This document shows, one piece after another, positions 1-26,081 of a stretch of 36,225 nucleotides of DNA. Positions within the stretch are counted from its first letter, which is position 1. Every line of letters begins with the position of its first letter. This DNA is from a virus (lineage: Duplodnaviria > Heunggongvirae > Uroviricota > Caudoviricetes): the IMG/VR virus record IMGVR_UViG_2526164670_000014, one strand, 5' to 3'. Position numbers and translations under genes: made by a program. The notes beneath the pieces were generated by a model that saw only the letters and a list, made by a program, of their open reading frames with translations, made no database searches and had not been told where the DNA came from.

Positions 1-1053
1 TTACGGGGTAATGCCAACCGCTGCCGCCACTTTGTCGCCACTTGGCAGCGTTGCCAGAGGATTGAAACGGAGCGCCGTTTCCAGATGATCCGGTGCCAGA
101 TGTGCGTAACGCATAGTCATTTTTATATCGTGGTGTCCGAGAATTTTTTGTAAGGCCAGAATGTTTCCACCCGACATCATGAAGTGCGCCGCAAACGTAT
201 GGCGCAGAACGTGTGTGAGTTGACCGCGAGGGAGCACGATAGACGTTTTTTCCATCACGGATAAAAATTGAAAATAGCAGTCTGTGAAGAAATTGAACCC
301 ATCAAGCGCCATGATCTCTTCGTAAAGCTCTTTACTGATAGGGATGCTTCTGTTTTTCTTCCCCTTCGTTCTTACAAAGGTAATTCGGTATTTGGTCACC
401 TGTGAACGAGTAAGATTTACGGCTTCTCGCCAGCGTGCGCCTGTGCTTAAGCATATCTTAACTACCAGTGCCAGAATTGGGTCCTGACGTTTGCAATCAG
501 CCAGTAATTCAACAATCTGCTCATGGGTAAGCCATGCCATCTCTTTTTCTGCAATGGTGAATTTTCGCATGTTCTCCAGTGGGTTCGGATACGACCATTC
601 GCCCAGGCGGGATAGTTCGCTAAAAACACTACTTAGATAGCTTTGCTCCAGGTTAATGGTGACCGGGCTTGCTCCTTTCTTCCATTTCTCGCTGAAGTAG
701 ATCTCACCTGTCAGGCGTTTATCTCGATAGTGGGCAAACATTTTAGAGGTTAGATCAGTTGCAAGGGGATTGCCCAGAGCGTCAACCATCAGCAGCAATT
801 TGTCATAGACATGCTGCCCAGCAGTCAGTGATTTACCATGTAGTTTGAACCATAGCTCAACCACGTCTTTCAGTGTTCGACGATCCACTGATTCACCTAG
901 CCAGGGCTTTGCTTCGGTTTCTTCCATCGTGTGACGCTCAAAAGCCAGTGCTTCGCCTTTGGTGGCGAATTGTTTACGCACACGACGCCCACTACGTCCG
1001 GCGGGGTAACATTCGCAAAGCCATTTTCCTGTGGTGAGTTTTCGTACAGCCAT
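1..1053 (-). CDS. int: Tyrosine-family phage integrase
   Basis: ORF track 1..1131; start placed at the ATG (MAVRKLTTGKW) at 1053, which has a GGAGG about 8 nt upstream. Motifs RHTFA and HHDIKMTMRYAH (catalytic Tyr region). Last about 13 codons are encoded by att core plus host flank. Confidence 0.9.
   Translation of the reverse strand: MAVRKLTTGKWLCECYPAGRSGRRVRKQFATKGEALAFERHTMEETEAKPWLGESVDRRTLKDVVELWFKLHGKSLTAGQHVYDKLLLMVDALGNPLATDLTSKMFAHYRDKRLTGEIYFSEKWKKGASPVTINLEQSYLSSVFSELSRLGEWSYPNPLENMRKFTIAEKEMAWLTHEQIVELLADCKRQDPILALVVKICLSTGARWREAVNLTRSQVTKYRITFVRTKGKKNRSIPISKELYEEIMALDGFNFFTDCYFQFLSVMEKTSIVLPRGQLTHVLRHTFAAHFMMSGGNILALQKILGHHDIKMTMRYAHLAPDHLETALRFNPLATLPSGDKVAAAVGITP
19..40. repeat. 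attL core (cgctgccgccaCtttgtcgcca)
   Basis: Direct repeat of 33371-33392 with a single C/T mismatch; flanking sequence diverges on both sides; lies within the 3' end of the integrase reading frame. Confidence 0.7.
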
Positions 1054-1448
1054 AAAAAATGCCCTCCAATAGAGAGCATTTTTACTGTATGTATAACCAG
1101 TGTCAATGTATGAAATCCTGCGACCATACATCTCACTGAAGCCATAATGAAGTAGGCTATTCTTTTTGCTATGTGATCATGTAACTTTTGCGGTTAACCT
1201 GTGGCTCATTTTTATTTTAGGCGCAGATATAAAAGCAAAAGTTATCGTGAGTTTTTAGTACAGATTTTTTTGGATTTACTAATAGTTCCATCATTGCAAA
1301 CGAATTTGCCATCAGAGGTACAGTGAGAAACACCTCCCTTTTTCCCTGAGCAGGGATAATTTCTAGCATAGGTAGCTAGTGGGTTTAATAACAAAGAACA
1401 TGACAAAACCACAAAAAATACCTTACCAAGCATAATTTCCTCCCGGTA

Positions 1449-2018
1449 TTATTTAACATACTTGACTGTTAAACTTATAATTTTACCAATTATTTCAATG
1501 TCTTCTATCTTACATTCGAAGGCTCTGTTTCCACCCTCGACGAAGATTCTTCCACCGGGTAAACGAGTAATGTCACGGATCGTTATTTCGCCATCAATAC
1601 TTATTACCCATTTACCATCACGTATATCATCAAATTCCTTATCACAAATAAATTCAGAATTATTATCTGTGATTACAAAAAGATTCTTGAATGCCGACGG
1701 TAGAAATTCTCTATCGAAAATATAAAAACCGTCTTCACACAAGGCCCCATCAGATAATACATATTTAGCAACTTCCATAGTATTTGTATTACCTGAAGTT
1801 TGCTTTGAACCATGCCCGGTTGTGAGCCAATTAAGCGAGGTGCCTGTTTCAAGGGCGCACTGGATTACCCATTCTGCTGGGAATGAGTCACGCATGTAGC
1901 GTGTGGCGAGTGTACTTTTAGAGATTCCTAAATGATCGCACAACGCCTGTCGAGTCTTGAATCCATAAGCTTCTACCATGCGCTCTATGGCGCCTCGTCC
2001 GCCTTTCTCCAAATTCAT
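1449..2018 (-). CDS. CI-type immunity repressor (186-like)
   Basis: Divergent from apl/cII, N-terminal HTH-like segment (GISKSTLATRYMRD); ATG at 2018 preceded by GGAG; position next to int as in P2/186. Confidence 0.75.
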   Translation of the reverse strand: MNLEKGGRGAIERMVEAYGFKTRQALCDHLGISKSTLATRYMRDSFPAEWVIQCALETGTSLNWLTTGHGSKQTSGNTNTMEVAKYVLSDGALCEDGFYIFDREFLPSAFKNLFVITDNNSEFICDKEFDDIRDGKWVISIDGEITIRDITRLPGGRIFVEGGNRAFECKIEDIEIIGKIISLTVKYVK

Positions 2019-2043
2019 GGTCACTCCAAGTGAACTTTTATCT

Positions 2044-3721: not shown

Positions 3722-3948
3722 TGGCTGATGCAATGGATCTCGTACAGCAGCGCGTTGAAGAAGAACGCCAGCGCCATATCCGTGCTGCCCGTGCCAAAAC
3801 GCCGGGCGTGTCCCGCGTGCTTTGCATTGAGTGTGAAGCGCCAATTCCGCCAGCACGCCGCCGCGCCATTCCGGGTGTGCAGCTTTGCATTACCTGTCAG
3901 GAAATCGCAGAGCTGAAAGGCAAACATTACAACGGAGGTGCTGTATGA
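3721..3948 (+). CDS. TraR/DksA-family C4 zinc-finger protein
   Basis: 75 aa with CIECEAPIP...LCITCQ (CxxC-N17-CxxC) characteristic of phage TraR-like proteins. Confidence 0.75.
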   Translation: MADAMDLVQQRVEEERQRHIRAARAKTPGVSRVLCIECEAPIPPARRRAIPGVQLCITCQEIAELKGKHYNGGAV

Positions 3949-4802
3949 GCACCATCCTGAAATGGGCGGGAAATAAAACCGCCATTATGTCCGAACTGAA
4001 AAAGCATCTTCCTGCTGGCCAGCGACTGGTTGAACCTTTCGCGGGTTCCTGTGCTGTGATGATGGAGACGGAGTACCCCAGCTATCTTGTTGCGGATATT
4101 AATCCTGATTTAATCAACCTCTATAAAAAGGTTGCTGCTGATTGTGAATCGTTTATATCTCGCGCCAGAGCTTTATTTGAGGAAGCAAACAGGGAGGTGG
4201 CTTATTACAACATAAGGCAGGAGTTTAATTACTCAACTGAAATTACTGATTTCATGAAAGCGGTATATTTCCTGTATCTCAATCGTCACGGTTACCGTGG
4301 TTTATGTCGCTATAACAAGAGCGGGCATTTCAACATTCCCTACGGTAATTATAAAAATCCGTATTTCCCTGAAAAAGAAATTCGCGCTTTTGCAGAAAAA
4401 GCCCAGCGAGCAACGTTTATCTGCGCCAGCTTTGATGAAACGTTGGCGGTGTTGAAGGCGGGGGATGTGGTGTATTGCGATCCGCCTTATGACGGTACGT
4501 TTTCCGGCTATCACGCTGACGGCTTCACTGAAGATGACCAGTATCACCTGGCATCCGTTCTTGAACATCGGTCATCAGAAGGACATCCGGTCATTGTTTC
4601 TAACAGTGACACATCCCTGATCCGTTCGCTGTATCGCAATTTTACTCACCACTATATCAAGGTAAAACGCAGCATCGGTGTGGCAGCTGGCGAGGGTAAA
4701 TCAGCAACAGAAATCATTGCTGTTTCCGGGCCGCGCTGCTGGGTGGGATTTGATTATTCGCGTGGCGTGGATAATTCTGCCGTGTACGGAGTACGTGCAT
4801 GA
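3945..4802 (+). CDS. dam: DNA N6-adenine methyltransferase (Dam-like, orphan)
   Basis: Motifs PFAGS (SAM binding) and DPPY (catalytic); GGAGG upstream of ATG 3945; no restriction-enzyme partner adjacent. Confidence 0.85.
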
Positions 4803-7213
4803 GCCATGCCGATATGAACAACTGCTGCGGCTTTAACGAGGCTGCCGCATCGTTCTCATGGAACAGCCCGAAAAAGGCCATTAACCCTTATCTGGACCCG
4901 GCGGAAGTTGCGCCGGTTTCTACGCTTTCAAACCTGATCACTCTGTACGCTGCCGATAACGAGCAGGAACAGCTGCGCCGAGAGGCACTGAGTGATCAGG
5001 TCTGGGAGCGTTATTTCTTTAATGAATCCCGTGATCCTGTCCAGCGCGAAATGGAGCAGGATAAGCTCATTAGTCGGGCAAAGCTGGCGCATGAGCAGCA
5101 GCGTTTTAATCCGGATATGGTCATTCTGGCGGACGTCAACGCCCAGCCTTCCCATATCAGCAAGCCCCTGATGCAACGTATTGAATACTTCAGCAACCTG
5201 GGCAAGCCAAAGGCTTATTCCCGCTATTTACGTGAGACGATTAAGCCATGTCTGGAACGACTGGAGCATGTACGCGACAGCCAGCTATCTGCATCTTTTC
5301 GTTTTATGGCAAGCCATGAAGGGCTGGACGGCCTGTTTATCCTGCCTGAAATGAGTCAGGATCAGGTGAAGCGCCTGTCTACCCTTGTCGCTGCGCATAT
5401 GAGCATGTGCCTTGATGCCGCTTGTGGTGATTTGTATGCCACCGATGACGTTAAGCCAGAAGAAATCCGCAAGACATGGGAAAAGGTGGCAGCGGAAACC
5501 CTGCGTCTGGATGTTATCCCGCCTGCGTTTGAGCAACTCCGTCGGAAAAGAAACCGCCGTAAACCCGTGCCCTATGAACTCATTCCGGGTTCGCTGGCGC
5601 GTATGTTGTGCGCCGACTGGTGGTACCGGAAATTATGGAAGATGCGTTGCGAATGGCGGGAAGAGCAGTTGCGTGCTGTCTGCCTTGTCAGCAAAAAAGC
5701 ATCTCCCTATGTCAGCTATGAAGCCGTGCTGCATAAACGTGAGCAGCGCCGTAAGTCGCTGGAGTTTTTCCGTTCTCATGAACTGGTGAACGAAGACGGC
5801 GACACGCTGGACATGGAGGATGTGGTAAACGCCAGCAGCAGCAACCCTGCGCATCGCCGCAATGAGATGATGGCCTGTGTTAAAGGTCTGGAGCTTATCG
5901 CGGAAATGCGCGGTGACTGCGCCGTTTTCTACACCATCACCTGTCCGTCACGTTTCCATTCCACGCTAAATAACGGCAGGCCCAACCCGACCTGGACAAA
6001 TGCGACGGTAAGACAAAGCAGCGATTATCTGGTCGGTATGTTTGCTGCATTTCGTAAGGCGATGCACAAAGCCGGGTTGCGCTGGTATGGCGTGCGGGTG
6101 GCTGAGCCGCATCACGACGGCACAGTTCACTGGCACCTGTTGTGTTTCATGCGCAAAAAAGACCGCCGCGCCATTACTGCATTGTTGCGTAAGTTTGCTA
6201 TCCGTGAAGACCGCGAGGAGCTGGGCAATAACACGGGGCCGCGCTTTAAGTCTGAGCTGATTAACCCGCGCAAAGGAACGCCGACAAGCTACATAGCGAA
6301 ATACATCAGTAAGAACATTGACGGGCGTGGTCTGGCTGGCGAGATCAGCAAGGAAACGGGTAAATCTCTGCGTGATAACGCTGAATACGTGAATGCCTGG
6401 GCGTCTTTGCATCGTGTTCAGCAATTCCGCTTCTTTGGCATTCCGGGGCGTCAGGCTTACCGTGAACTGCGATTGCTGGCTGGTCAGGCGGCAAGGCAAC
6501 AGGGGGACAAAAAAGCAGGTGCGCCGGTACTGGATAACCCGCGCCTTGATGCCATCCTGGCTGCTGCTGATGCTGGTTGTTTTGCCACCTACATCATGAA
6601 GCAGGGCGGCGTACTGGTTCCCCGTAAATATCACCTCATCAGAACCGCTTATGAAATCAACGAAGAGCCGACCGCCTATGGCGATCACGGCATTCGTATT
6701 TATGGCATCTGGTCACCCATTGCAGAGGGCAAGATCTGCACTCATGCAGTGAAGTGGAAAATGGTTCGTAAAGCCGTTGACGTTCAGGAGGCGGCAGCCG
6801 ACCAGGGCGCTTGCGCCCCTTGGACTCGTGGCAATAACTGTCCCCTTGCTGAAAATTTGTACCAACAAGGGAAAGACAAATCAGCTGATGGGGATACCAG
6901 AACGGATATCATCCGTATGGATGACAAGGAGTTGCACGATTATCTGCACAGTATGAACAAAAAAGAGCGCCGAGAACTGGCTGCAAGGTTACGCCTGGTG
7001 AAACCGAAACGGCGTAGAGACTACAAACAGCGAATTACAGACCATCAACGACAGCAGCTCGTCTATGAACTGAAGTCCAGAGGATTTGATGGCAGCGAGA
7101 AAGAGGTCGATTTACTCCTTCGCGGCGGCAGCATTCCGTCAGGAGCAGGCCTGCGAATCTTCTATCGGAACCAGCGTTTGCAGGAAGATGATAAGTGGCG
7201 GAACCTGTATTAA
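4799..7213 (+). CDS. A: Rolling-circle replication initiator/endonuclease (P2 gpA family)
   Basis: 804 aa; HUH motif (TVHWHLL) and paired tyrosines YIAKYISK typical of gpA/phiX174-type Rep; start overlaps the dam stop. Confidence 0.85.
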
Positions 7214-7973: not shown

Positions 7974-9032
7974 TTAATTTTCAATTCCCTCCATTTTACA
8001 ATGAGTTTTTTCCCAGAACTGTAATACAACAGGACTAGCCCACTCTGGCATCAGTGCGTTATTTAAAAAACTGAAAACATCATGAGACGCATCAGCATTT
8101 TTTCTAAGGAATTTCCAGCCTTTTCTAGTATTTATCTCAACAATACCTAACCCACCATCATCAAACATATGCATCTTGAATTCAGGATTGTTTACACCTA
8201 GAGATTTTATTTCTTTTATGTATGGACTATCTTCATCCATAAATATTTTCTCTATGTGCTTAGCACAATGATATATTTTATTTCGATAAGTTGATACGCT
8301 CACAGCGGTACGCGCTGTTGTTATTCCCATTCCTAATGGGGCATATGCTTTTCCATCCATCACTACGGGCAGATTTATTCCATTTTTTCTTAAGTTTGCA
8401 ATATCTGAATCTGTAGTTGGATGAATACAAGCTAAGCCTGAAATACCTTTCATTTCAAATATTTCTGCTGCTTCTGGCCAGTTGCGTATGAATGTTTCTA
8501 CCAAATCTCTTTGAGAAAAAAGATTTGGTTCTATGTTTTTATCATGATGTTTTATATCAATAAAAAGCACAGCGTTTGAGTACACCTTCAGGAATAATAC
8601 CCACTCAGCACGATCTGAGTATTTTTTACTTGAACTTACTGGATTTAATGGCAGATGGAGGTGATGAATCCCCCAATCAGCCCATAGGTTATCCGTTCTT
8701 TTCGTCGCCTTTTTACCGCTTGTGTCATTGAATAATGTTAATGTTTTACTCTGATAAGGATTTACATCACCACCAGTAGTAAACAACATCTCGATTCTCT
8801 GCAATCCAACCCTTGCGCCATCGTGAATATTTCCAGGAAATCGATCTGATTTTAAAATTATTCGTTTTTGTGGAGCAATGTAGCGTAAAAGAAAATCACA
8901 CCACCTCAGTAGAGGATCGTGAAGATTTGAGTGCCCGGATTCATCATATAATAACCCAAATGCTTGAATTCCCTTCTCTGAAATTTCGTCAATATCTTTG
9001 ATTAGATCAATATTTTTTCGTGCGTCCAACAT
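7974..9032 (-). CDS. Uncharacterised 352-aa protein in AT-rich accessory island (candidate anti-phage/accessory gene)
   Basis: Long uninterrupted ORF, GGAG 5-8 nt upstream of the ATG; about 28% GC by hand count on one 60-nt line versus about 58% on a structural-gene line; no family recognised by eye. Confidence 0.7.
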   Translation of the reverse strand: MLDARKNIDLIKDIDEISEKGIQAFGLLYDESGHSNLHDPLLRWCDFLLRYIAPQKRIILKSDRFPGNIHDGARVGLQRIEMLFTTGGDVNPYQSKTLTLFNDTSGKKATKRTDNLWADWGIHHLHLPLNPVSSSKKYSDRAEWVLFLKVYSNAVLFIDIKHHDKNIEPNLFSQRDLVETFIRNWPEAAEIFEMKGISGLACIHPTTDSDIANLRKNGINLPVVMDGKAYAPLGMGITTARTAVSVSTYRNKIYHCAKHIEKIFMDEDSPYIKEIKSLGVNNPEFKMHMFDDGGLGIVEINTRKGWKFLRKNADASHDVFSFLNNALMPEWASPVVLQFWEKTHCKMEGIEN

Positions 9033-9426
9033 ACTAACTCCGTTTAAATATAATTTTTTAGTATTTCAGTTAATTAATATCTATACGCCGTTATAGCTGA
9101 ATTTTCCGGTGATTTCAGGGCACATTAACCAATTTAGATAATACTATAGTAATGGTTGGGCTGATTTTTCAAGAACAAAAGTAATTTTCAAGCTTTGTAA
9201 CATGTTGATTTTTCACTTTTCGCTCAAGCGGGCTTTCATCTTTGCAAGCCCATATGTTCGTTTTTCAAGCGATTATTCAGATACGTTAACTTCCCATGGC
9301 AGTGCATGACTATGCTGCATGAAATCGCATGATCGATCGAGGATCGTCTATGCTTAGACCAGCCAGAAATGGCGGGCTTTTGCTCATGTCATGCAGCTGC
9401 ATGAAAACCACTGCATAAAGTGGGCA

Positions 9427-9445
9427 GGCGTGGCGGGGATACGAG
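9427..9445. other. cos-like sequence (candidate cohesive-end site)
   Basis: GGCGTGGCGGGGA matches the first 13 nt of the 19-nt cohesive end as I recall it for phage 186 (GGCGTGGCGGGGAAAGCAT); lies in a GC-rich patch between the two island genes. Confidence 0.35.
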
Positions 9446-9521
9446 CGCGCGCAACGGGTTGTCATTCAAACTCCAATGCTATAAAACTGTGTAATACAAA
9501 CAACTAAAGTAGGTGGCCTCA

Positions 9522-11267
9522 GTGGAACTGCAAGCAAATGCTCGAACCTTAACAAACGTGTTATCTGTAAATAAAAAATATATAGTCCCTAGATTCCAAA
9601 GAGAATATTCTTGGGGGAAGGAACAAGTAAGTGAACTTTGGCATGATATAGTTTCCAATATTCATTACCAGGAGGATGGGCAGTATCAATATGATGAGTA
9701 TTTCATCGGTGCTCTCGTTTTGGTCGGGCAGGAAACTAGCTCTGAGCTGATGATTGTAGATGGTCAACAACGTCTTACGACTCTTACTATATTGTTATCA
9801 GCATTATGTGATAAATTTAAGTTGATAAATGAGTTGGCTGTAGCTCAATCAATATATAATAATTATATATCTGGTATGGATGACGATGGCAGACCTTTTT
9901 TTAAATTAGTTAATGAAACTCCTAAGCCATACTTTCAAAACAACATTCAGCATATTGATAAGAGAAATGAAGGGCCGGAGTCCCTTGAAGAAAGAAACTT
10001 GCAATCTTCATATAATGATTTAACTGAGTATCTTTCAGAAGATAATCTTTGCCAGACATTAGGAGTAGATAGAGAGAAATTTATCTACTTGGAAGCGTTG
10101 AAGGCTGTGCGGGATCAAGTTCTACGGTATCTGAAAGTGATTTATATTACAGTTAATGATGAAGATGAAGCTTATACAATCTTTGAAACTCTGAATGCTA
10201 GGGGATTAAACTTAAGTTATGTAGATCTTATAAAAAACAAATTATTTAAGAAACTGAATGGCACACATCCTGATGATGATGCAAAAACTAAATGGAATAA
10301 AATTAGGCAAATAATTGCTAGTCGTAATGGTGTCGGTTCTATCGAGACATTTATCCGTCATTGGTGGGTGTCAAAATATTCTTATGTAAGTAGTGACACT
10401 CTTTATAAAGCTTTTCTGGATAAGTGGAAAAAAGGCGACATTGATGCTTCAGCGTTCATTGATGAGCTACTTTCAGATGCCGAGATATATGTGAAAATAT
10501 CATCGCCTACAGAACAGGATTTTCCTGAACTGGAAATGAAACCAGTTTATCGAGGTTTGCAGGCATTAAGGCTGTTTAACATATCTCAGAACAAACCATT
10601 TTTGTTATCTTTATTTAAGGCAAGAGCAAGAGGAACGCTAAAACTTGTTGATATGAATAATGCAGTGCTGTCAATTGAACGCTTTCATTTTATGTTTAAT
10701 GCTATTTGTTCATTGCGACCATCAGGTATTGAAAGTGCGTATGCTAAAGCTGCTAGGGCTTTAGTGGATGAAGGTTCTACTAAAGCTAGTAATAGACAAG
10801 TAATAAAGTCTTTGCTTGAAATGTTGGTGAAGAGAAAACCAGACATTAATATGTTTGTTGAAAAGTTTGTTATGCTTAAATTTTCAAATCAAGAGTTGAA
10901 AAATAAAAGGTTGATTCAGTACATTTTTAATAGACTTGAGTTACATCACATGAAAACGGGGGAGTATATGCCTGATTCATTAACATTAGAGCATATTCAG
11001 CCTCAGAGTGTGGGGGATTCTGAAGTATATAGCATGATAGGAAATTTATTACCACTTTCAAAAGAATTAAATGAAAAAGCTGGAAATAAGTCTGTTGTGG
11101 ATAAGCTTGAAATTTATAAACAATCACAATATGCGCTAGTTAAAATTTTTATTGATGAATTTGAAAATAAATATCAAGGAGAATGGACGCCCGATCATAT
11201 GAGATCAAGAGCTGCTGAACTAAGTATTTTATCGTATAATTCAGTATGGAAATTGGGGCGTGAGTAA
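9522..11267 (+). CDS. DUF262 (ParB-like NTPase) plus DUF1524 (His-Me/HNH-like nuclease) fusion protein, GmrSD-like type IV restriction family
   Basis: N-terminal YIVPRFQREYSW and DGQQRLTT motifs (DUF262); C-terminal LTLEHIQPQS...GNLLPLSKELNEKAGNK (DUF1524-like H..N..N); GTG start at 9522 with AGGTGG 5 nt upstream (ORF track begins at 9513); very AT-rich. Confidence 0.8.
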   Translation: MELQANARTLTNVLSVNKKYIVPRFQREYSWGKEQVSELWHDIVSNIHYQEDGQYQYDEYFIGALVLVGQETSSELMIVDGQQRLTTLTILLSALCDKFKLINELAVAQSIYNNYISGMDDDGRPFFKLVNETPKPYFQNNIQHIDKRNEGPESLEERNLQSSYNDLTEYLSEDNLCQTLGVDREKFIYLEALKAVRDQVLRYLKVIYITVNDEDEAYTIFETLNARGLNLSYVDLIKNKLFKKLNGTHPDDDAKTKWNKIRQIIASRNGVGSIETFIRHWWVSKYSYVSSDTLYKAFLDKWKKGDIDASAFIDELLSDAEIYVKISSPTEQDFPELEMKPVYRGLQALRLFNISQNKPFLLSLFKARARGTLKLVDMNNAVLSIERFHFMFNAICSLRPSGIESAYAKAARALVDEGSTKASNRQVIKSLLEMLVKRKPDINMFVEKFVMLKFSNQELKNKRLIQYIFNRLELHHMKTGEYMPDSLTLEHIQPQSVGDSEVYSMIGNLLPLSKELNEKAGNKSVVDKLEIYKQSQYALVKIFIDEFENKYQGEWTPDHMRSRAAELSILSYNSVWKLGRE

Positions 11268-11294
11268 ATGCCGGGGGGGGGCCCAGCATATTTA

Positions 11295-12344
11295 TCAAAA
11301 AGAATCGTTTGTGAAATTTAGGGAGTAGGCATCAAAGCGTATTGCTTCTTCGCCTAGCCAATAGTTAAGTTCTTGTAGCTGTTTCTGCAGGGGCATCAGT
11401 TCGTTGCGGACAAAAACACGACTAGCCTTCTCCACATCACCAAAGCCCCCAACATTATTAGGCATTATCCCCATCATTTGCGGCGGCACACGGTGTGCCG
11501 CCATCATGTCGTCCCGGCTCACGTTCTTGATATTCAGAAACTCATCCTTCGCCGCGACTTCTGACAACGGGATAATCTGAAGCCCGTCCTTTTTGCCGTT
11601 AGGAGAGTACATAAACAGGTTGCGGAAGTTGCCTGGCCCTTTGGCACTTTTCATTGCATTGCGGAGGTTGTTCACATCCTCCTGGTTCTGCGCGGCATCG
11701 GTCATGTACATGATGAAGCCTGCATGACTGCCGTTAATATAATACTTCCGGCGGAACAGCGTGGCGGACTCGTTGAGCAGGGCTGATGGAATGGCAGAAA
11801 GATAACCTGGCAGGCCGTAGATCTCCTGGTTGATGTCCGGTTCCATCAGATGAAAAATGCTGCCTTTCGTGAACTGATACGGCTGGGTTGTCATACCGTA
11901 TTGCACAAACCAGTAGGTATCCAGGTCTAACCCGCGTCGGGTGTATTTTGCCAGAGCAGGCTCAAGGGCGATAACTTCACCGAAGCGGTTCGTGCGTTTC
12001 TCCAGGTAGGCGTTACCAAATACCAGATAGTCCTGCACAAAACGTGAAAAAGCCTGCTGGCTGAGCAGCGGGTGAGGGATGTAGGTACTGGTCAGAATGT
12101 TGCATTTCACCGCAATTGGTGAGCTGTGATGCACGGCGGCGCGGAAGGTTCGTGCCAGTCCGTCAAAGCTGACGGGCGGCTCATACCAGCGGTCCATCTG
12201 TACGCATTCCACATAGTCCAGCAGTTCTCGGCGGTCCAGAACAGGAACGGGATCGCCGAAGCTGAATGCTTCGGCTGTAGTCTGGCTTTTAAGCTGGATC
12301 TGTTTCGTCGCCGCAGCGCGGTTCTTCTTACTCTTTCCCATCAA
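11295..12344 (-). CDS. Q: Portal protein (P2 gpQ family)
   Basis: 349 aa, immediately downstream of and overlapping the terminase ATPase gene; position and size as P2 Q. Confidence 0.85.
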   Translation of the reverse strand: MMGKSKKNRAAATKQIQLKSQTTAEAFSFGDPVPVLDRRELLDYVECVQMDRWYEPPVSFDGLARTFRAAVHHSSPIAVKCNILTSTYIPHPLLSQQAFSRFVQDYLVFGNAYLEKRTNRFGEVIALEPALAKYTRRGLDLDTYWFVQYGMTTQPYQFTKGSIFHLMEPDINQEIYGLPGYLSAIPSALLNESATLFRRKYYINGSHAGFIMYMTDAAQNQEDVNNLRNAMKSAKGPGNFRNLFMYSPNGKKDGLQIIPLSEVAAKDEFLNIKNVSRDDMMAAHRVPPQMMGIMPNNVGGFGDVEKASRVFVRNELMPLQKQLQELNYWLGEEAIRFDAYSLNFTNDSF

Positions 12345-14107
12345 AAAATCTCCACAATATTGCTGGTATTGGCGGATTCGCCCTGCAGCGGTTCGTTAAA
12401 CAATGCGTGCATCGTTGCCCAGGCCAGATCGGCGTGGCTGGCTTCTTCGCTGCGGCTGGCTTCATAGGTCGGGCGGTTGCCGCTGGCGGTGGTTGCGCGA
12501 CGGATTGCCATGAATGACTGCGCAATGTCGGTGTGTCCGGCGTCAAACTCCAGACGGCGGTGGCTGATAATGTCGTAGGCCTTGAGTACCAGGGCGTTTT
12601 TAACGTTGGGGTTGTAGACAAACTCCCGGACGGCTGGAAAAAACGCTTTCACGTTCTCGTAAACCCCGTGACCGACACCCGTCGAGTCGATGCCGATATA
12701 GGTCACGTTGTACTGCTCGGTCAGTTTTTTGATTGCATCAGCCTGGGCGCGGAAGTCCATCCCGCGCCACTGGTGACGCTCAAGAATGCGAAACTTACCG
12801 CCTGGCACGGCTGGCGGTGCCACCACCACGCATCCGGCGCTGTCGCCGTTCTGCGTACCTTTTGCCGGGTCATAACCGATCCACACCTCGCGCCAGCCAA
12901 ACGGGCGCAGGGCCAGTGCATGAAAGTCGGTCCAGACTTCCCAGCTGTCCACCATGCACGCCTGCAGTTCGCTGAGCGGGAACACGGACGCGAGATCGTC
13001 CACGAACTCGCACATCAGCAGGTTCTGATATTCGTCCGGGCTGTATTCCATGCGTAGCTGGTCGAGGTCGAACAGGTTACAGCCGCCGCGCACCGCATCT
13101 TCCACGGTGACTATCTGGCGGTATTGCCCGTCTGCGCACAGCAGGCCGGGGGCCAGATTGTTGTGGGACAGGTCGATGTCCACCTTATCGGCTTTGTTGC
13201 GCCCACGGTTGAACAGCGCACCGGACCAGAACGGATAAGCACTGTGTGTCAGGCTGGATGGCGTGGAAAAATAGGTCTGCCGCCATTTCTTGTGAATAGC
13301 CATACCGGAAGCCACTTTGCGCAGCTCCTGGAATTTCGGGATCCAGAAATATTCATCCAGATACAGGTTGCCGTGGTAACTCTGGGCCGTGCGGGCATTG
13401 GTGCCGAGGAAGTAAAGCGTGGCCCCGTCAGGAAGCACTATCGGATCACCTTTCAGCTCCACCTCGACTTCTTTGGCGAAGTCGATGATGTACTGCTTAA
13501 AGACGTGAGCCTGTGCCTTACTGGCAGAAAGGAAAATCTGGTTACGTCCGGTAAGCAGGGCGTCAATCAGGGCTTCACGGGCAAAGTAAAAGGTCGCGCC
13601 GATCTGGCGTGACTTCAGCAGGTTGCGGATGCGGTTGGTTTTTCCGGCTTCCCACCAGTGGCGCTGGTAGTTGAACATGGAGGAATGGAAAATTTCTTCC
13701 AGCTTCTCAATCTGTTCATCGGTGAAAACGTTCTTTTCCGGCTGACGGCGCGGGCCTTTGTTGCGGTTGGCGACGTTAGGGTTTAAGTCGGCTTCGTTGC
13801 CGCCATTGTTAAACTTGCCGATCCGCGCGTGGCGTTCCGACTGGCGCGCCAGCAGGTCAATCTCTTTGAAATCTTTCCCTTCTTTGTGCTCCTTCATAAT
13901 GAGCTGGCAATAGCGTGCGGCGGTGGTGAGCTGCATCTGATCCAGCGGCCCATAGTCACCCCACTTGTCGCGTTTTTTCCAGCTGTGAACGGTTGCAACT
14001 TTCTCGCCCAGCATTTCAGCAATGCGGGCTACGCGGTATCCCTGAAAGTACAGCAGCATGGCCTGCCGACGGGGATCGAGATCTGCGGGTGTCAGTGTGG
14101 TGTTCAT
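12341..14107 (-). CDS. P: Terminase large (ATPase) subunit (P2 gpP family)
   Basis: 588 aa, divergent from the O-N-M-L capsid operon exactly as in P2; size and position typical. Confidence 0.85.
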   Translation of the reverse strand: MNTTLTPADLDPRRQAMLLYFQGYRVARIAEMLGEKVATVHSWKKRDKWGDYGPLDQMQLTTAARYCQLIMKEHKEGKDFKEIDLLARQSERHARIGKFNNGGNEADLNPNVANRNKGPRRQPEKNVFTDEQIEKLEEIFHSSMFNYQRHWWEAGKTNRIRNLLKSRQIGATFYFAREALIDALLTGRNQIFLSASKAQAHVFKQYIIDFAKEVEVELKGDPIVLPDGATLYFLGTNARTAQSYHGNLYLDEYFWIPKFQELRKVASGMAIHKKWRQTYFSTPSSLTHSAYPFWSGALFNRGRNKADKVDIDLSHNNLAPGLLCADGQYRQIVTVEDAVRGGCNLFDLDQLRMEYSPDEYQNLLMCEFVDDLASVFPLSELQACMVDSWEVWTDFHALALRPFGWREVWIGYDPAKGTQNGDSAGCVVVAPPAVPGGKFRILERHQWRGMDFRAQADAIKKLTEQYNVTYIGIDSTGVGHGVYENVKAFFPAVREFVYNPNVKNALVLKAYDIISHRRLEFDAGHTDIAQSFMAIRRATTASGNRPTYEASRSEEASHADLAWATMHALFNEPLQGESANTSNIVEIF

Positions 14108-23948: not shown

Positions 23949-24392
23949 ATGAATCAATATATTTATTCCCCTTCGGAAAATGCATTTTATGCTGTTAATT
24001 TAAAAAATACTTATGAAGTAAATGGAACATGGCCCGCTGATGCATTAGATATTCCTGATGACATTTCTGTAAAATATATGGCGGAACCGCCACAAGGGAA
24101 AATCCGAGTTGCAGGGGAAAATGGTTTTCCCACATGGGCTGAAATACCTCCACCATCACATGAGGAACTTATTGAACAGGCCGAATCAGAGAGGCAATTA
24201 TTGATTAACCATGCCAACGAATACATGAACAGTAGGCAATGGTCTGGTAAAGCAGCTATTGGTCGCCTGAAGGGGGACGAGCTGGCGCAATATAATTTGT
24301 GGCTGGATTATCTGGACGCACTGGAACTGGTCGATACTTCCGGGGCGCCAGATATTGAATGGCCTACGCCTCCGGCAGTTCAGGCCAGATGA
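23949..24392 (+). CDS. G: Tail fibre assembly chaperone (P2 gpG family), orientation A
   Basis: 147 aa immediately after H, inside the invertible segment. Confidence 0.75.
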   Translation: MNQYIYSPSENAFYAVNLKNTYEVNGTWPADALDIPDDISVKYMAEPPQGKIRVAGENGFPTWAEIPPPSHEELIEQAESERQLLINHANEYMNSRQWSGKAAIGRLKGDELAQYNLWLDYLDALELVDTSGAPDIEWPTPPAVQAR

Positions 24393-24966
24393 CATCCGGC
24401 GCTGTGCTGGTATTTGTTGCCGTCACCGCGTCAATGTAATCCAGCACAGCGTTAAGCCGGGTTGTTTCTGCCTGCATCAACTTCCGTCCGGCCTGTAATT
24501 TCAGCTGAATCAGACTGATGGAAGCCATTGCAGCATCAATCAGTGACTGACGCTGTGCTTCTGCCGCGTCTACTGCGGCGCTATGCTGTGCCTCAGTATC
24601 GGTCACCCATTTCTCACCATCCCATTTATCGTATGGCGTTAATGGGGCGATAGTGGTTGTATTTTCGGGGTAATCACCCGGTGCTGTGATTTCTTTGGCA
24701 TCTCCCGTTTCGGTGTTATAGACGATTTCACCGCGATGGTCTGGCACATATTCCCATGAATTTAAATCTACAGAACGGCAAATTGTATAACCAGCCTTAT
24801 ATGTACTAGGAGCGTCTAAACAGGAATATGCTGGAATACCGACACCCACTGCAAGATATTCAGTTGATGCAGAAATATATTCCCGAGTTTCACCATCGTA
24901 GTTATAAACGGTAATATTCCCCGCCTTCGTGGCAATAAACTCGCTATTTAATACTGCGTTATCCAT
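24364..24966 (-). CDS. Alternative tail fibre assembly chaperone (G'), orientation B
   Basis: 200-aa ORF on the opposite strand, convergent with G and downstream of the alternative fibre cassette; C-terminal block similar to the G C-terminus (W..YLDAL/AVLDYIDAV..T...PDI.WP.PP). Confidence 0.7.
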   Translation of the reverse strand: MDNAVLNSEFIATKAGNITVYNYDGETREYISASTEYLAVGVGIPAYSCLDAPSTYKAGYTICRSVDLNSWEYVPDHRGEIVYNTETGDAKEITAPGDYPENTTTIAPLTPYDKWDGEKWVTDTEAQHSAAVDAAEAQRQSLIDAAMASISLIQLKLQAGRKLMQAETTRLNAVLDYIDAVTATNTSTAPDVIWPELPEA

Positions 24967-25445
24967 TATGCAGCCCTCACGATAAAGTTAAATGCAATAT
25001 TTCGTGGACGGGTCTCACTCCCACCAGTATTACCGATACTCCCTCGTGAATGAAGTGTCGGTGATGGGATCAGACTCCCTCCTGTATTTGTGGCATCAAG
25101 TCCCCGTCCTTGTGTGTATGTTTTTTTGAAAATCGTAGCCAGTTCCCATTCATCTTTTGTGTCGTAACCATCATTGGCAACAACAATATGGCGGTGTTTT
25201 TCCAGCATCCCAGCCTGAAGGCTCAATAAAGCACGTCCAGCATCAATACCACGCCCGTCATCCCAGCCACGAATAAACTCACCACGTAAATCTGGCAATT
25301 TATTTGTCGGGTAAGCCTTTGCCAGTTCCGGGTATTCTTCAGCAGAAAAAGCTGCTCCGTTGCATTTCAGCCAGCCTGTTGGCGGAGTGGCTGAAGGCCA
25401 CGGAACAGGGACACCAACAGGTAATGCAGAGCCTTCTCCCAAACC
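24966..25445 (-). CDS. Alternative tail-fibre C-terminal cassette (Hv'), promoterless until inversion
   Basis: Reverse-strand ORF beginning at crossover site 2 in the same frame as H relative to the shared GLGE codons; contains tail-fibre receptor-binding motifs (PTGW..C.G...S..EYPEL...LPDLRGEFIRG). Confidence 0.7.
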   Translation of the reverse strand, partial: GLGEGSALPVGVPVPWPSATPPTGWLKCNGAAFSAEEYPELAKAYPTNKLPDLRGEFIRGWDDGRGIDAGRALLSLQAGMLEKHRHIVVANDGYDTKDEWELATIFKKTYTQGRGLDATNTGGSLIPSPTLHSRGSIGNTGGSETRPRNIAFNFIVRAA

Positions 25446-25459
25446 AACGTTTAAGAAAA
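25434..25459 (+). repeat. Invertase crossover site 2 (gix/hix/cix-like 26-bp site)
   Basis: TTCTCCCAAACC-AA-CGTTTAAGAAAA; inverted relative to site 1; about 55 bp upstream of the invertase start. Confidence 0.7.
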
Positions 25460-25514
25460 TGCAGCGATTACGACTAACTGGCATCATCCCCGGTTTTTAT
25501 TCAGGGGATTGATC

Positions 25515-26081
25515 ATGCTTATTGGCTATGTACGCGTGTCAACAAATGACCAGAACACCGATTTGCAACGTAATGCACTGAACTGCGCGGGATGTGAGCG
25601 GATTTTTGAGGACAAAATCAGTGGCACTAAGTCCGACAGACCGGGGCTTAAAAAACTGCTCAGGACACTATCGGCAGGTGACACACTGGTTGTCTGGAAG
25701 CTGGACAGGTTGGGGCGCAGTATGCGGCATCTTGTTACGCTGATAGAAGAGTTGCGCCAGCGCGGCGTGAATTTCCGAAGCCTGACTGACAGTATTGATA
25801 CCAGTACCCCAATGGGCCGTTTCTTTTTTCATGTCATGGGTGCCCTGGCTGAAATGGAACGCGAACTGATAGTTGAACGTACCAGGGCAGGGCTGGCTGC
25901 AGCTCGTGCTAAAGGCAGAGTAGGTGGACGCCGTCCTAAGTTGACTACCGAACAGTGGGCACAGATTGGACGTTTACTCGAGGCCGGAGAATCAAGACAG
26001 CGTATTGCACTGATTTTTGATGTAGGCGTTTCTACCATTTATAGAAAATTTCCGGCAAATAAGAGCAATGAATCTCCCTGA
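25515..26081 (+). CDS. Serine DNA invertase (Gin/Cin/Pin/Hin family)
   Basis: 188 aa from the ATG at 25515; N-terminal GYVRVSTNDQ with catalytic Ser, resolvase core, C-terminal HTH (GESRQRIALIFDVGVSTIYRKF). Confidence 0.9.
   Translation: MLIGYVRVSTNDQNTDLQRNALNCAGCERIFEDKISGTKSDRPGLKKLLRTLSAGDTLVVWKLDRLGRSMRHLVTLIEELRQRGVNFRSLTDSIDTSTPMGRFFFHVMGALAEMERELIVERTRAGLAAARAKGRVGGRRPKLTTEQWAQIGRLLEAGESRQRIALIFDVGVSTIYRKFPANKSNESP

Follow-up and report, generated by a model that had tools for sequence, protein, structure and literature searches.

A P2-family prophage of the 186/Fels-2 type, which is complete in the window analysed here (the whole stretch of 36,225 nucleotides), carries between its cos site and portal gene Q a gene for an intact two-domain protein, in which a DUF262 NTPase domain is joined by a helical linker to a DUF1524 His-Me finger. 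We consider it fairly probable that this gene is cargo of a known P2 defence hotspot, a 'moron', and that its product is a stand-alone nuclease against phages which belongs to the GmrSD superfamily and is triggered by modified DNA. The nuclease probably acts as a modification-dependent restriction enzyme of type IV. The domain content, the match to the HEC-06 family, the autonomy of the gene, its foreign GC content and its location in the hotspot were counted in favour of this reading.

Besides the features listed in Table 1, the window encodes CII, a DinI-like protein, head and tail proteins and an invertible tail-fibre module. Its right end consists of host genes, namely an Asp-Al_Ex/TrkA_C permease gene and ybjM. 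The GC content drops from about 55% to 34-40% in the interval from A/DinI to Q, in which two large ORFs are located. At the nuclease gene it amounts to 34-37% compared with about 56% in the structural genes. The uninterrupted ORF extends from 9513 to 11267 on the plus strand and ends with the stop codon TAA at 11265-11267. We chose the GTG at 9522 as the start, which gives a product of 581 aa. The upstream in-frame GTG at 9513 is a less likely start, since the codon at 9522 aligns with the ATG-GAA-CTG start of the homologues, is preceded by a Shine-Dalgarno-like TAGGTGG (9510-9516) and yields the 581-aa length given in RefSeq. The product matches RefSeq WP_000422658.1 and is 100% identical to a database protein (P0001). 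No family was assigned to it in an NCBIfam search, and megablast and tblastn searches against 50,697 deposited phages returned no close relative, the top match showing 27% identity in Listeria phages.

Table 1. Features of the prophage window with their positions, strands and supporting evidence.
Feature	Position	Strand	Evidence
Integrase-end ORF	1-1131		
186-type CI repressor	1449-2024		
Dam methylase gene	3885-4802		
Replication gene A	4799-7213		
PD-T4-7 homologue, 352 aa, A side of cos	7974..9032	-	PADLOC PDLC04066, E 8.7e-144, full length
cos cohesive-end core GGCGTGGCGGGGATACGAG, 19 nt	9427..9445	+	Alignment to annotated cosL of P2 (NC_001895) and 186 (NC_001317)
Putative promoter, TTGTCA-15 nt-TATAAA, wholly on the Q side of cos	9459..9485	+	Read from the sequence
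GmrSD-like (HEC-06-class) DUF262/DUF1524 nuclease gene	9522..11267	+	ORF, Pfam, PADLOC, RefSeq
N-terminal DUF262/GmrSD_N (ParB/Srx-like NTPase) domain	9555..10247	+	Pfam PF03235
C-terminal DUF1524/GmrSD_C His-Me finger nuclease domain	10881..11222	+	Pfam PF07510
G+C-rich hairpin ATGCC-G9-CCCAGCAT	11268..11289	.	Between the convergent nuclease and Q stops, at the position of the P2 tQ terminator
Portal gene Q, conserved right-hand border of the cargo bay	11295..12344	-	Pfam Phage_portal; RefSeq annotation of homologous loci
Terminase gene P	12341-14107	-	

An earlier note on this DNA had proposed a DUF262 signature at the N-terminus and a DUF1524-type His-Me finger at the C-terminus, and had named a profile search as the check. 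In this search both Pfam domains scored far above their cutoffs and well outside what chance would give. GmrSD_N (PF03235) reached 133.9 bits where the gathering cutoff is 33.2, with E 1e-38 and coverage of positions 3-199 of the 199 in the profile. GmrSD_C (PF07510), on the same polypeptide, reached 45.2 bits where the cutoff is 23, with E 1.2e-11 and coverage of positions 13-135 of the 138. The motifs on which the proposal was built were found as YIVPRFQREYSW at residues 20-31, DGQQRLTT at residues 80-87 and LTLEHIQPQS at residues 487-496. With both domains on one polypeptide and all catalytic motifs present, the GmrSD-like architecture that had been suggested was borne out. The NTPase domain contains Q26-R27, D80-G-Q-Q-R84 (nt 9759-9773) and F221-E-T-L-N225, and the stretch IVDGQQRLTT at residues 78-87 fits the (I/V)(I/V)DGQQRLTT motif of the superfamily. 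The His-Me domain provides E490-H491 (nt 10989-10994), N508 and N517, which make up an E/D-H-N-N motif. In a set of 46 homologues with 51-89% identity to the nuclease, residues Q26, R27, D80-R84, F221, E222, N225, E490, H491, N508 and N517 were all invariant. Conservation peaked around the NTPase motifs and was lowest in the C-terminal tail.

The AlphaFold2 model of the nuclease has a mean pLDDT of 80.9, and its predicted strands 488-491 and 509-512 together with helix 514-520 fit the beta-beta-alpha core. Values below 50 were obtained at residues 1-27 and 223-231, a range which covers two conserved NTPase motifs. In a Foldseek search the model gave DndI (9JFL) as the sole match (E 2e-12, TM 0.52-0.54) and did not return BrxU. 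On the level of the predicted structure, the solved folds nearest to the nuclease are those of DndI and SspE, ahead of BrxU.

Among the PADLOC families, HEC-06 (PDLC04154) was the top match with an E value of 3.8e-90 and 301 bits, residues 1-581 being aligned to positions 1-566 of the 569 of the profile. Three HEC-06 models ranked first, each over the full length (E 4e-90 to 4e-84), and were followed by Orf5 models with scores nearly as high, while the SspE and type IV models covered the N-terminal domain only. HEC-06 was described by Payne et al. as a validated single-protein GmrSD-like anti-phage nuclease (bioRxiv 10.1101/2024.01.29.577857). For the comparison we recovered a near-identical copy of the tested HEC-06 (WP_096851903.1) from an E. 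coli genome. The two proteins aligned end to end with 26% identity (E 2e-35), and both DGQQR and TLEHI(C/Q)P were in register. According to the same study, each of the substitutions Q79A, R80A, E471A and H472A abolishes defence by HEC-06. These four essential residues align with Q83, R84, E490 and H491 of the prophage nuclease. A copy almost identical to the tested HEC-06 also occurs in a Rac-like prophage.

The A-to-Q interval corresponds to P2 defence hotspot #1 (gpA-cos-gpQ, the old/tin locus), as set out in two studies (Rousset et al. 2022, PMC9122126; Vassallo et al. 2022, PMC9519451). The accession WP_000422658 is already contained in Table S5 of the former as 'DUF262/DUF1524' cargo. The locus agrees with the description of hotspot cargo, being a variable low-GC gene that lies beside cos in the stretch from gpA/DinI to gpQ. 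No DUF262/DUF1524 cargo is among the systems tested in the two hotspot papers, and in the text consulted the bays on the Q side and the A side are not separated. No experimental record for WP_000422658 was found in the literature searched, and a search for DUF262, DUF1524 or GmrSD together with 'P2-like' yielded nothing.

To describe the cargo of this position we surveyed 80 IMG/VR loci with portal proteins that are 93-97% identical. The cos core was found in 75 of them, and 73 of these 75 contained more than 300 bp between Q and cos. All cargo ORFs of at least 120 aa (90/90) were oriented from cos towards Q. Representatives of this cargo comprise a retron RT, AbiU/AIPR, PDC-M03A/B, PD-T7-1, DUF4062, PIN_12, a KAP NTPase, DUF4145 and a DUF262-only protein, and a relative of the prophage nuclease was present in just one of the 80 loci. 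Phages of this lineage normally carry cargo between cos and Q, and the first place at the genome end is not unusual.

The location between a cos-like site and Q, which the earlier note had pointed out, was substantiated by the cos core, as its first 13 nt equal cosL of phage 186 and the core is kept in all related loci. With its position between cos and Q, the nuclease gene would come first at the left end of the packaged DNA. The cos-to-Q interval measures 1.87 kb here, compared with P2 and 186 where Q ends about 190 nt from cos. Consensus scans reported no sigma-70 promoter upstream of the nuclease gene and no terminator downstream of it. The putative promoter that we read from the sequence was missed by the scan because of its 15-nt spacer. 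It has a TGC in front of TATAAA, which constitutes an extended -10 element (TGCTATAAA at 9477-9485), and both TTGT(C/A)A and TGCTATA(A/G)A are kept in the copy of a Klebsiella lambdoid prophage. The hairpin between the convergent genes is a putative terminator without a U-tract. It folds with -12.9 kcal/mol on the minus strand (z -2.3), which is marginally better than shuffled sequences, and on the plus strand it was not better than these.

We further examined the genomic contexts of homologues with 55-100% identity and found no conserved neighbour gene across five kinds of context. The identical protein occurs in P2-like prophages that have DUF4145 or DUF8087 on the A side in place of PD-T4-7. 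In Klebsiella lambdoid prophages the early region contains a homologue of 86% identity. A chromosomal islet of Pectobacterium has one of 60%, a cyanobacterial chromosome has one of 56% that stands by itself, and in Klebsiella P2-like prophages a homologue of 55% occupies the same cos-to-Q slot. The gene is low-GC foreign DNA that is found alone in unrelated mobile contexts. Judged from these contexts, the nuclease appears to have no need for a partner gene. The description of the nuclease as 'solitary' in the earlier note was therefore right for the system, which has no conserved neighbour, but not for the locus, where a PD-T4-7 homologue lies across cos. Its statement that no methyltransferase is adjacent held as well, and so did the start at 9522 that it had given for the gene. 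The prophage Dam was considered as a partner and rejected, since it belongs to the backbone: Fels-2 has it, and so do loci with different cargo, so that its presence does not depend on the cargo.

We propose the following scheme for the function of the nuclease. Its own promoter to the right of cos would drive expression in the lysogen, convergent with the late P-Q operon. The protein would then scan incoming DNA, and its NTPase domain would recognise hypermodified bases, most likely the hmC/glucosyl-hmC of T-even phages. Recognition would license nicking or cutting by the His-Me domain, in the manner of GmrSD, BrxU and HEC-06. Host and prophage DNA with ordinary cytosine would be spared, so that no methylase or other self-marking partner would be required. 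Together with the PD-T4-7 gene across cos, the nuclease could thereby provide the lysogen with layered protection against T4-like phages.

The proposed specificity for modified DNA is based on three points. HEC-06 was reported to block T4, and a Bacteroides homologue of it with 22% identity, HEC-06_Bact, defends against T4 but not against T4-GT7 with its unmodified cytosine (bioRxiv 10.1101/2025.02.28.640651). Moreover, a nuclease without a partner must spare ordinary DNA. Against our reading we counted the identity of only 26% to the tested HEC-06 and the score of 301 bits on the HEC-06 model, on which the tested HEC-06 itself reaches 733 bits. In addition, the closest solved relatives, DndI and SspE, do not have modified bases as targets, the promoter is a reading of the sequence that the consensus scan did not call, and the AlphaFold2 model is weak at two NTPase motifs.

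One alternative is an anti-phage nuclease of the same fold with a trigger other than base hypermodification, such as a phage protein, a DNA structure or free ends, or nucleotide depletion. An enzyme of this kind would also act on unmodified phages, perhaps abortively. HEC-06 is characterised as structurally and phenotypically distinct from BrxU in the study of Payne et al. (bioRxiv 10.1101/2024.01.29.577857), and the predicted fold of the prophage nuclease resembles DndI and SspE more than BrxU. In DndI the nuclease is modification-independent and gated by its ATPase (PMC11662687). Furthermore, systems of the P2 hotspot can hit unmodified phages including relatives of P2. However, the contrast between T4 and T4-GT7 in HEC-06_Bact, the sole specificity data for this branch, favours modification dependence. 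Besides, an ungated nuclease that is constitutively expressed without an immunity partner should be toxic, whereas the gene is stably alone in many contexts. We therefore regard a trigger other than base modification as unlikely.

Distinctly unlikely in our view is a third reading, according to which the nuclease forms a two-layer anti-T-even module with PD-T4-7, or senses a modification other than glucosyl-hmC. PD-T4-7 is presented by Vassallo et al. (PMC9519451) as an abortive-infection-type system selected against T4. In such a module type IV restriction could act first, and the abortive system could serve as a backup once phage inhibitors such as Ip1-3 disable the nuclease. As to the second variant, the nuclease belongs to a sub-branch of HEC-06 that is, in the predicted model, structurally nearest to sensors of backbone modification, and it may recognise another DNA modification.

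The sequences around cos bear on the pairing of the two genes. Up to position 9452 the window shares 99.9% identity with E. coli ET350, which has PD-T4-7 and a different DUF262/DUF1524 allele with 37% identity. From 9302 or 9227 onwards, its identity is 98.6% to loci that combine this nuclease allele with other cargo on the A side. This switch of identity at the flanks of cos locates the exchange in the conserved cos segment. Of 5426 complete E. coli genomes, 6 have the nuclease allele of the window, and PD-T4-7 is absent from all of these (0/6). The one public contig found with the exact PD-T4-7 protein of the window has an adjoining 581-aa GmrSD_N/GmrSD_C gene, and PD-T4-7 and DUF262 co-occur in about 48-50 E. 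coli genomes. We rejected this co-occurrence as a functional link, as it probably reflects one clonally inherited prophage and is therefore not independent evidence. The same distinctly unlikely reading holds that the bays on the A side and the Q side are reshuffled independently through recombination within roughly 150 bp of conserved sequence at cos, and that PD-T4-7 has even so come together on at least two occasions with distinct DUF262/DUF1524 alleles, which are only 37% identical to each other.

We also considered an effector of the DndI/SspE kind that relies on a phosphorothioate (PT) system of the host, with PT either protecting self DNA as for DndI or activating the enzyme as for SspE. 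DndI (PDB 9JFL) and SspE (6JIV, 7DRI) are phosphorothioate-sensing DUF262-HNH nucleases whose overall fold is similar to that of the modelled nuclease, a likeness that speaks for this reading. Both sense PT on self DNA, and DndI attacks unmodified DNA (PMC11662687). DndI is also toxic without PT (PMC11662687), and it is hence a poor fit to a gene that travels alone. The nuclease shares only 15-18% identity with DndI and SspE, and their PT-sensing tyrosine (Y25 in DndI, Y30 in SspE) corresponds to F25, a phenylalanine that is invariant in the family of the nuclease. No sspABCD or dndBCDE genes were present among the ORFs scanned in the window or in the gene tables of the homologous loci examined; the ORFs of the window and the tables of the homologous prophages list ordinary P2-family genes. 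Moreover, the gene moves on phages among E. coli, Klebsiella, Enterobacter and others, and it can therefore not rely on the PT system of a host. Taken together, dependence on PT is very improbable.

HNH endonucleases encoded beside terminase and portal genes aid cos cleavage in HK97-like phages, and the nuclease gene directly adjoins cos and the portal and terminase genes, but we rejected a role as packaging helper instead of defence gene as hardly credible, because P2 and 186 package without the gene, its slot holds interchangeable and otherwise unrelated defence-type cargo with a relative in a single one of the surveyed loci, the allele is rare among the complete E. coli genomes and of foreign GC content, and homologues exist in chromosomes outside any phage as well as among the early genes of a lambdoid prophage.

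If active, the allele adds a variant to the fast-diversifying GmrSD-like type IV enzymes, which drive the arms race over the internal proteins (Ip1-3) of T-even phages (PMC12373910). It would also show temperate P2-family phages spreading such enzymes among Enterobacteriaceae, and this spread is relevant when the host range of T4-like phages used in therapy is to be predicted. The family, the hotspot and the accession WP_000422658 had all been catalogued before, and no new question is raised by the locus.

Among the known systems, the nuclease resembles GmrSD (EcoCT/Eco94; Machnicka et al. 2015, PMC4619093) in the fusion of PF03235 and PF07510, in the (I/V)(I/V)DGQQRLTT motif and in the E/D-H-N-N motif. 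It further shares with the type IV enzymes of this kind its independence from a methylase and its carriage by a mobile or prophage element. In contrast to this likeness, the PADLOC model mREase_IV matched the N-terminal domain only (E 5.6e-16). BrxU/HEC-05 (PDB 7P9K) is not the closest structural relative of the nuclease. The fold match to BrxU is much weaker than that to DndI or SspE, and BrxU/HEC-05 was not among the best 25 of the 34 PADLOC families matched by the nuclease. In addition, the nucleotide-binding motif RLFDS is missing, as the nuclease has ELWHD at residues 38-42 where HEC-05 has CRLFDS. HEC-06 (Hma-embedded candidate 06) likewise lacks RLFDS and has DLWSD instead. It shares the same three-part architecture with the nuclease, with 560 aa compared with 581 aa, and is also a single gene, which for the prophage nuclease is read from the genomic context. 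The two differ in sequence, given their low identity, and in location, as the nuclease gene lies in a prophage cargo bay whereas HEC-06 lies inside an Hma system. Judged by its sequence and predicted fold, the nuclease belongs to the GmrSD superfamily as a divergent representative of the HEC-06 branch, with a modelled fold closer to the phosphorothioate sensors than to BrxU.

On the other side of cos, the immediate neighbour of the nuclease gene is a homologue of the defence gene PD-T4-7, which carries no Pfam domain. Therefore, the hotspot of the window comprises two systems, each of which is associated with T4. Moreover, the DUF262/DUF1524 family is a repeated occupant of the slot between cos and the portal gene Q, and its alleles have diverged deeply. 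Among complete E. coli genomes, 50 have a second allele (WP_001008289.1) in this slot, and in 48 it is linked to the same PD-T4-7 allele. A third allele, 55% identical, is located in the cos-to-Q slot of Klebsiella P2-like prophages (loci L014-L016).

Matches to other loci change around cos. Up to 9452 the sequence of the window corresponds to that of E. coli ET350, which carries PD-T4-7 together with a DUF262/DUF1524 allele that is 37% identical to the window nuclease. From 9302 or 9227 rightwards the correspondence is with loci that share the nuclease allele and have a different A-side cargo. Judged from these matches, both cargo bays appear to have recombined independently inside the conserved cos segment. 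Small ORFs across the cos site were called or annotated at 9310-9465 (-) in the window and at 4632-4820 in the comparison locus L001. RefSeq lists one of these cos-crossing ORFs as a pseudogene, interrupted by an internal stop. Annotation of the conserved cos region most likely produced these ORFs as artefacts.

Features located in the window and in comparison loci
Feature	Location	Strand	Remarks
Mosaic junction	window 9227-9452		around cos 9427-9445; sequence matches to other loci
PD-T4-7 defence gene homologue, 352 aa	window 7974-9032	-	PADLOC E 8.7e-144
Second DUF262/DUF1524 allele, WP_001008289.1, 593 aa	L002 7367-9148		37% identical to window nuclease
Nuclease copy, 86% identical	L006 4852-6937 (also L007-L010)		Klebsiella lambdoid prophage
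Near-identical copy of experimentally tested HEC-06 gene	L019 6001-7683		E. coli S3, Rac-like prophage
Run of nine G, non-coding	window 11273-11281		inside hairpin between convergent stops of nuclease gene and Q
Tail-fibre assembly gene	window 24364-24966	opposite to invertase
Alternative tail-fibre C-terminal segment (Collar domain)	window 24966-25487	opposite to invertase
Hin/Cin-type serine invertase	window 25509-26081	+

Relatives of the nuclease were also found outside P2-like prophages. The Klebsiella copy lies between the replication genes and the Arc/Bro/nin genes of a lambdoid prophage. Since it retains a P2-type cos remnant upstream and approximately 155 nt of the 3' end of a P2 portal gene downstream, this cassette evidently moved from a P2-like phage, flanks included. 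The HEC-06 gene copy, which is carried by 30 complete genomes, adjoins a TPR protein gene and hok in the Rac-type lambdoid prophage of E. coli S3. There it is situated outside any Hma system, and the first 399 nt of this copy are identical. Furthermore, cyanobacterial proteins from Leptolyngbya, Nostoc, Anabaena, Calothrix and others (P0038-P0116) are 51-56% identical to the nuclease of this enterobacterial prophage over the full length, which suggests that a strongly conserved enzyme has spread widely by horizontal transfer.

Two further features of the window were observed. The nine-G run may be a tract of variable length or a site sensitive to assembly. The region 23949-26081 looks like an invertible tail-fibre module, in which the tail-fibre segment and the assembly gene adjoin the invertase.

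The cargo bay was surveyed in IMG/VR loci with a portal 93-97% identical (L020-L099), 75 of which have a recognisable cos. Of the cargo ORFs, 90 reach 120 aa or more, and every one of these runs in the direction from cos to Q. The cargo types include retron RT, AbiU, PDC-M03A/B, PD-T7-1, DUF4062, PIN_12 and KAP NTPase. Between cos and Q, 73 of the 75 loci hold cargo of 0.5-3.5 kb; in P2 and 186 this bay is empty.
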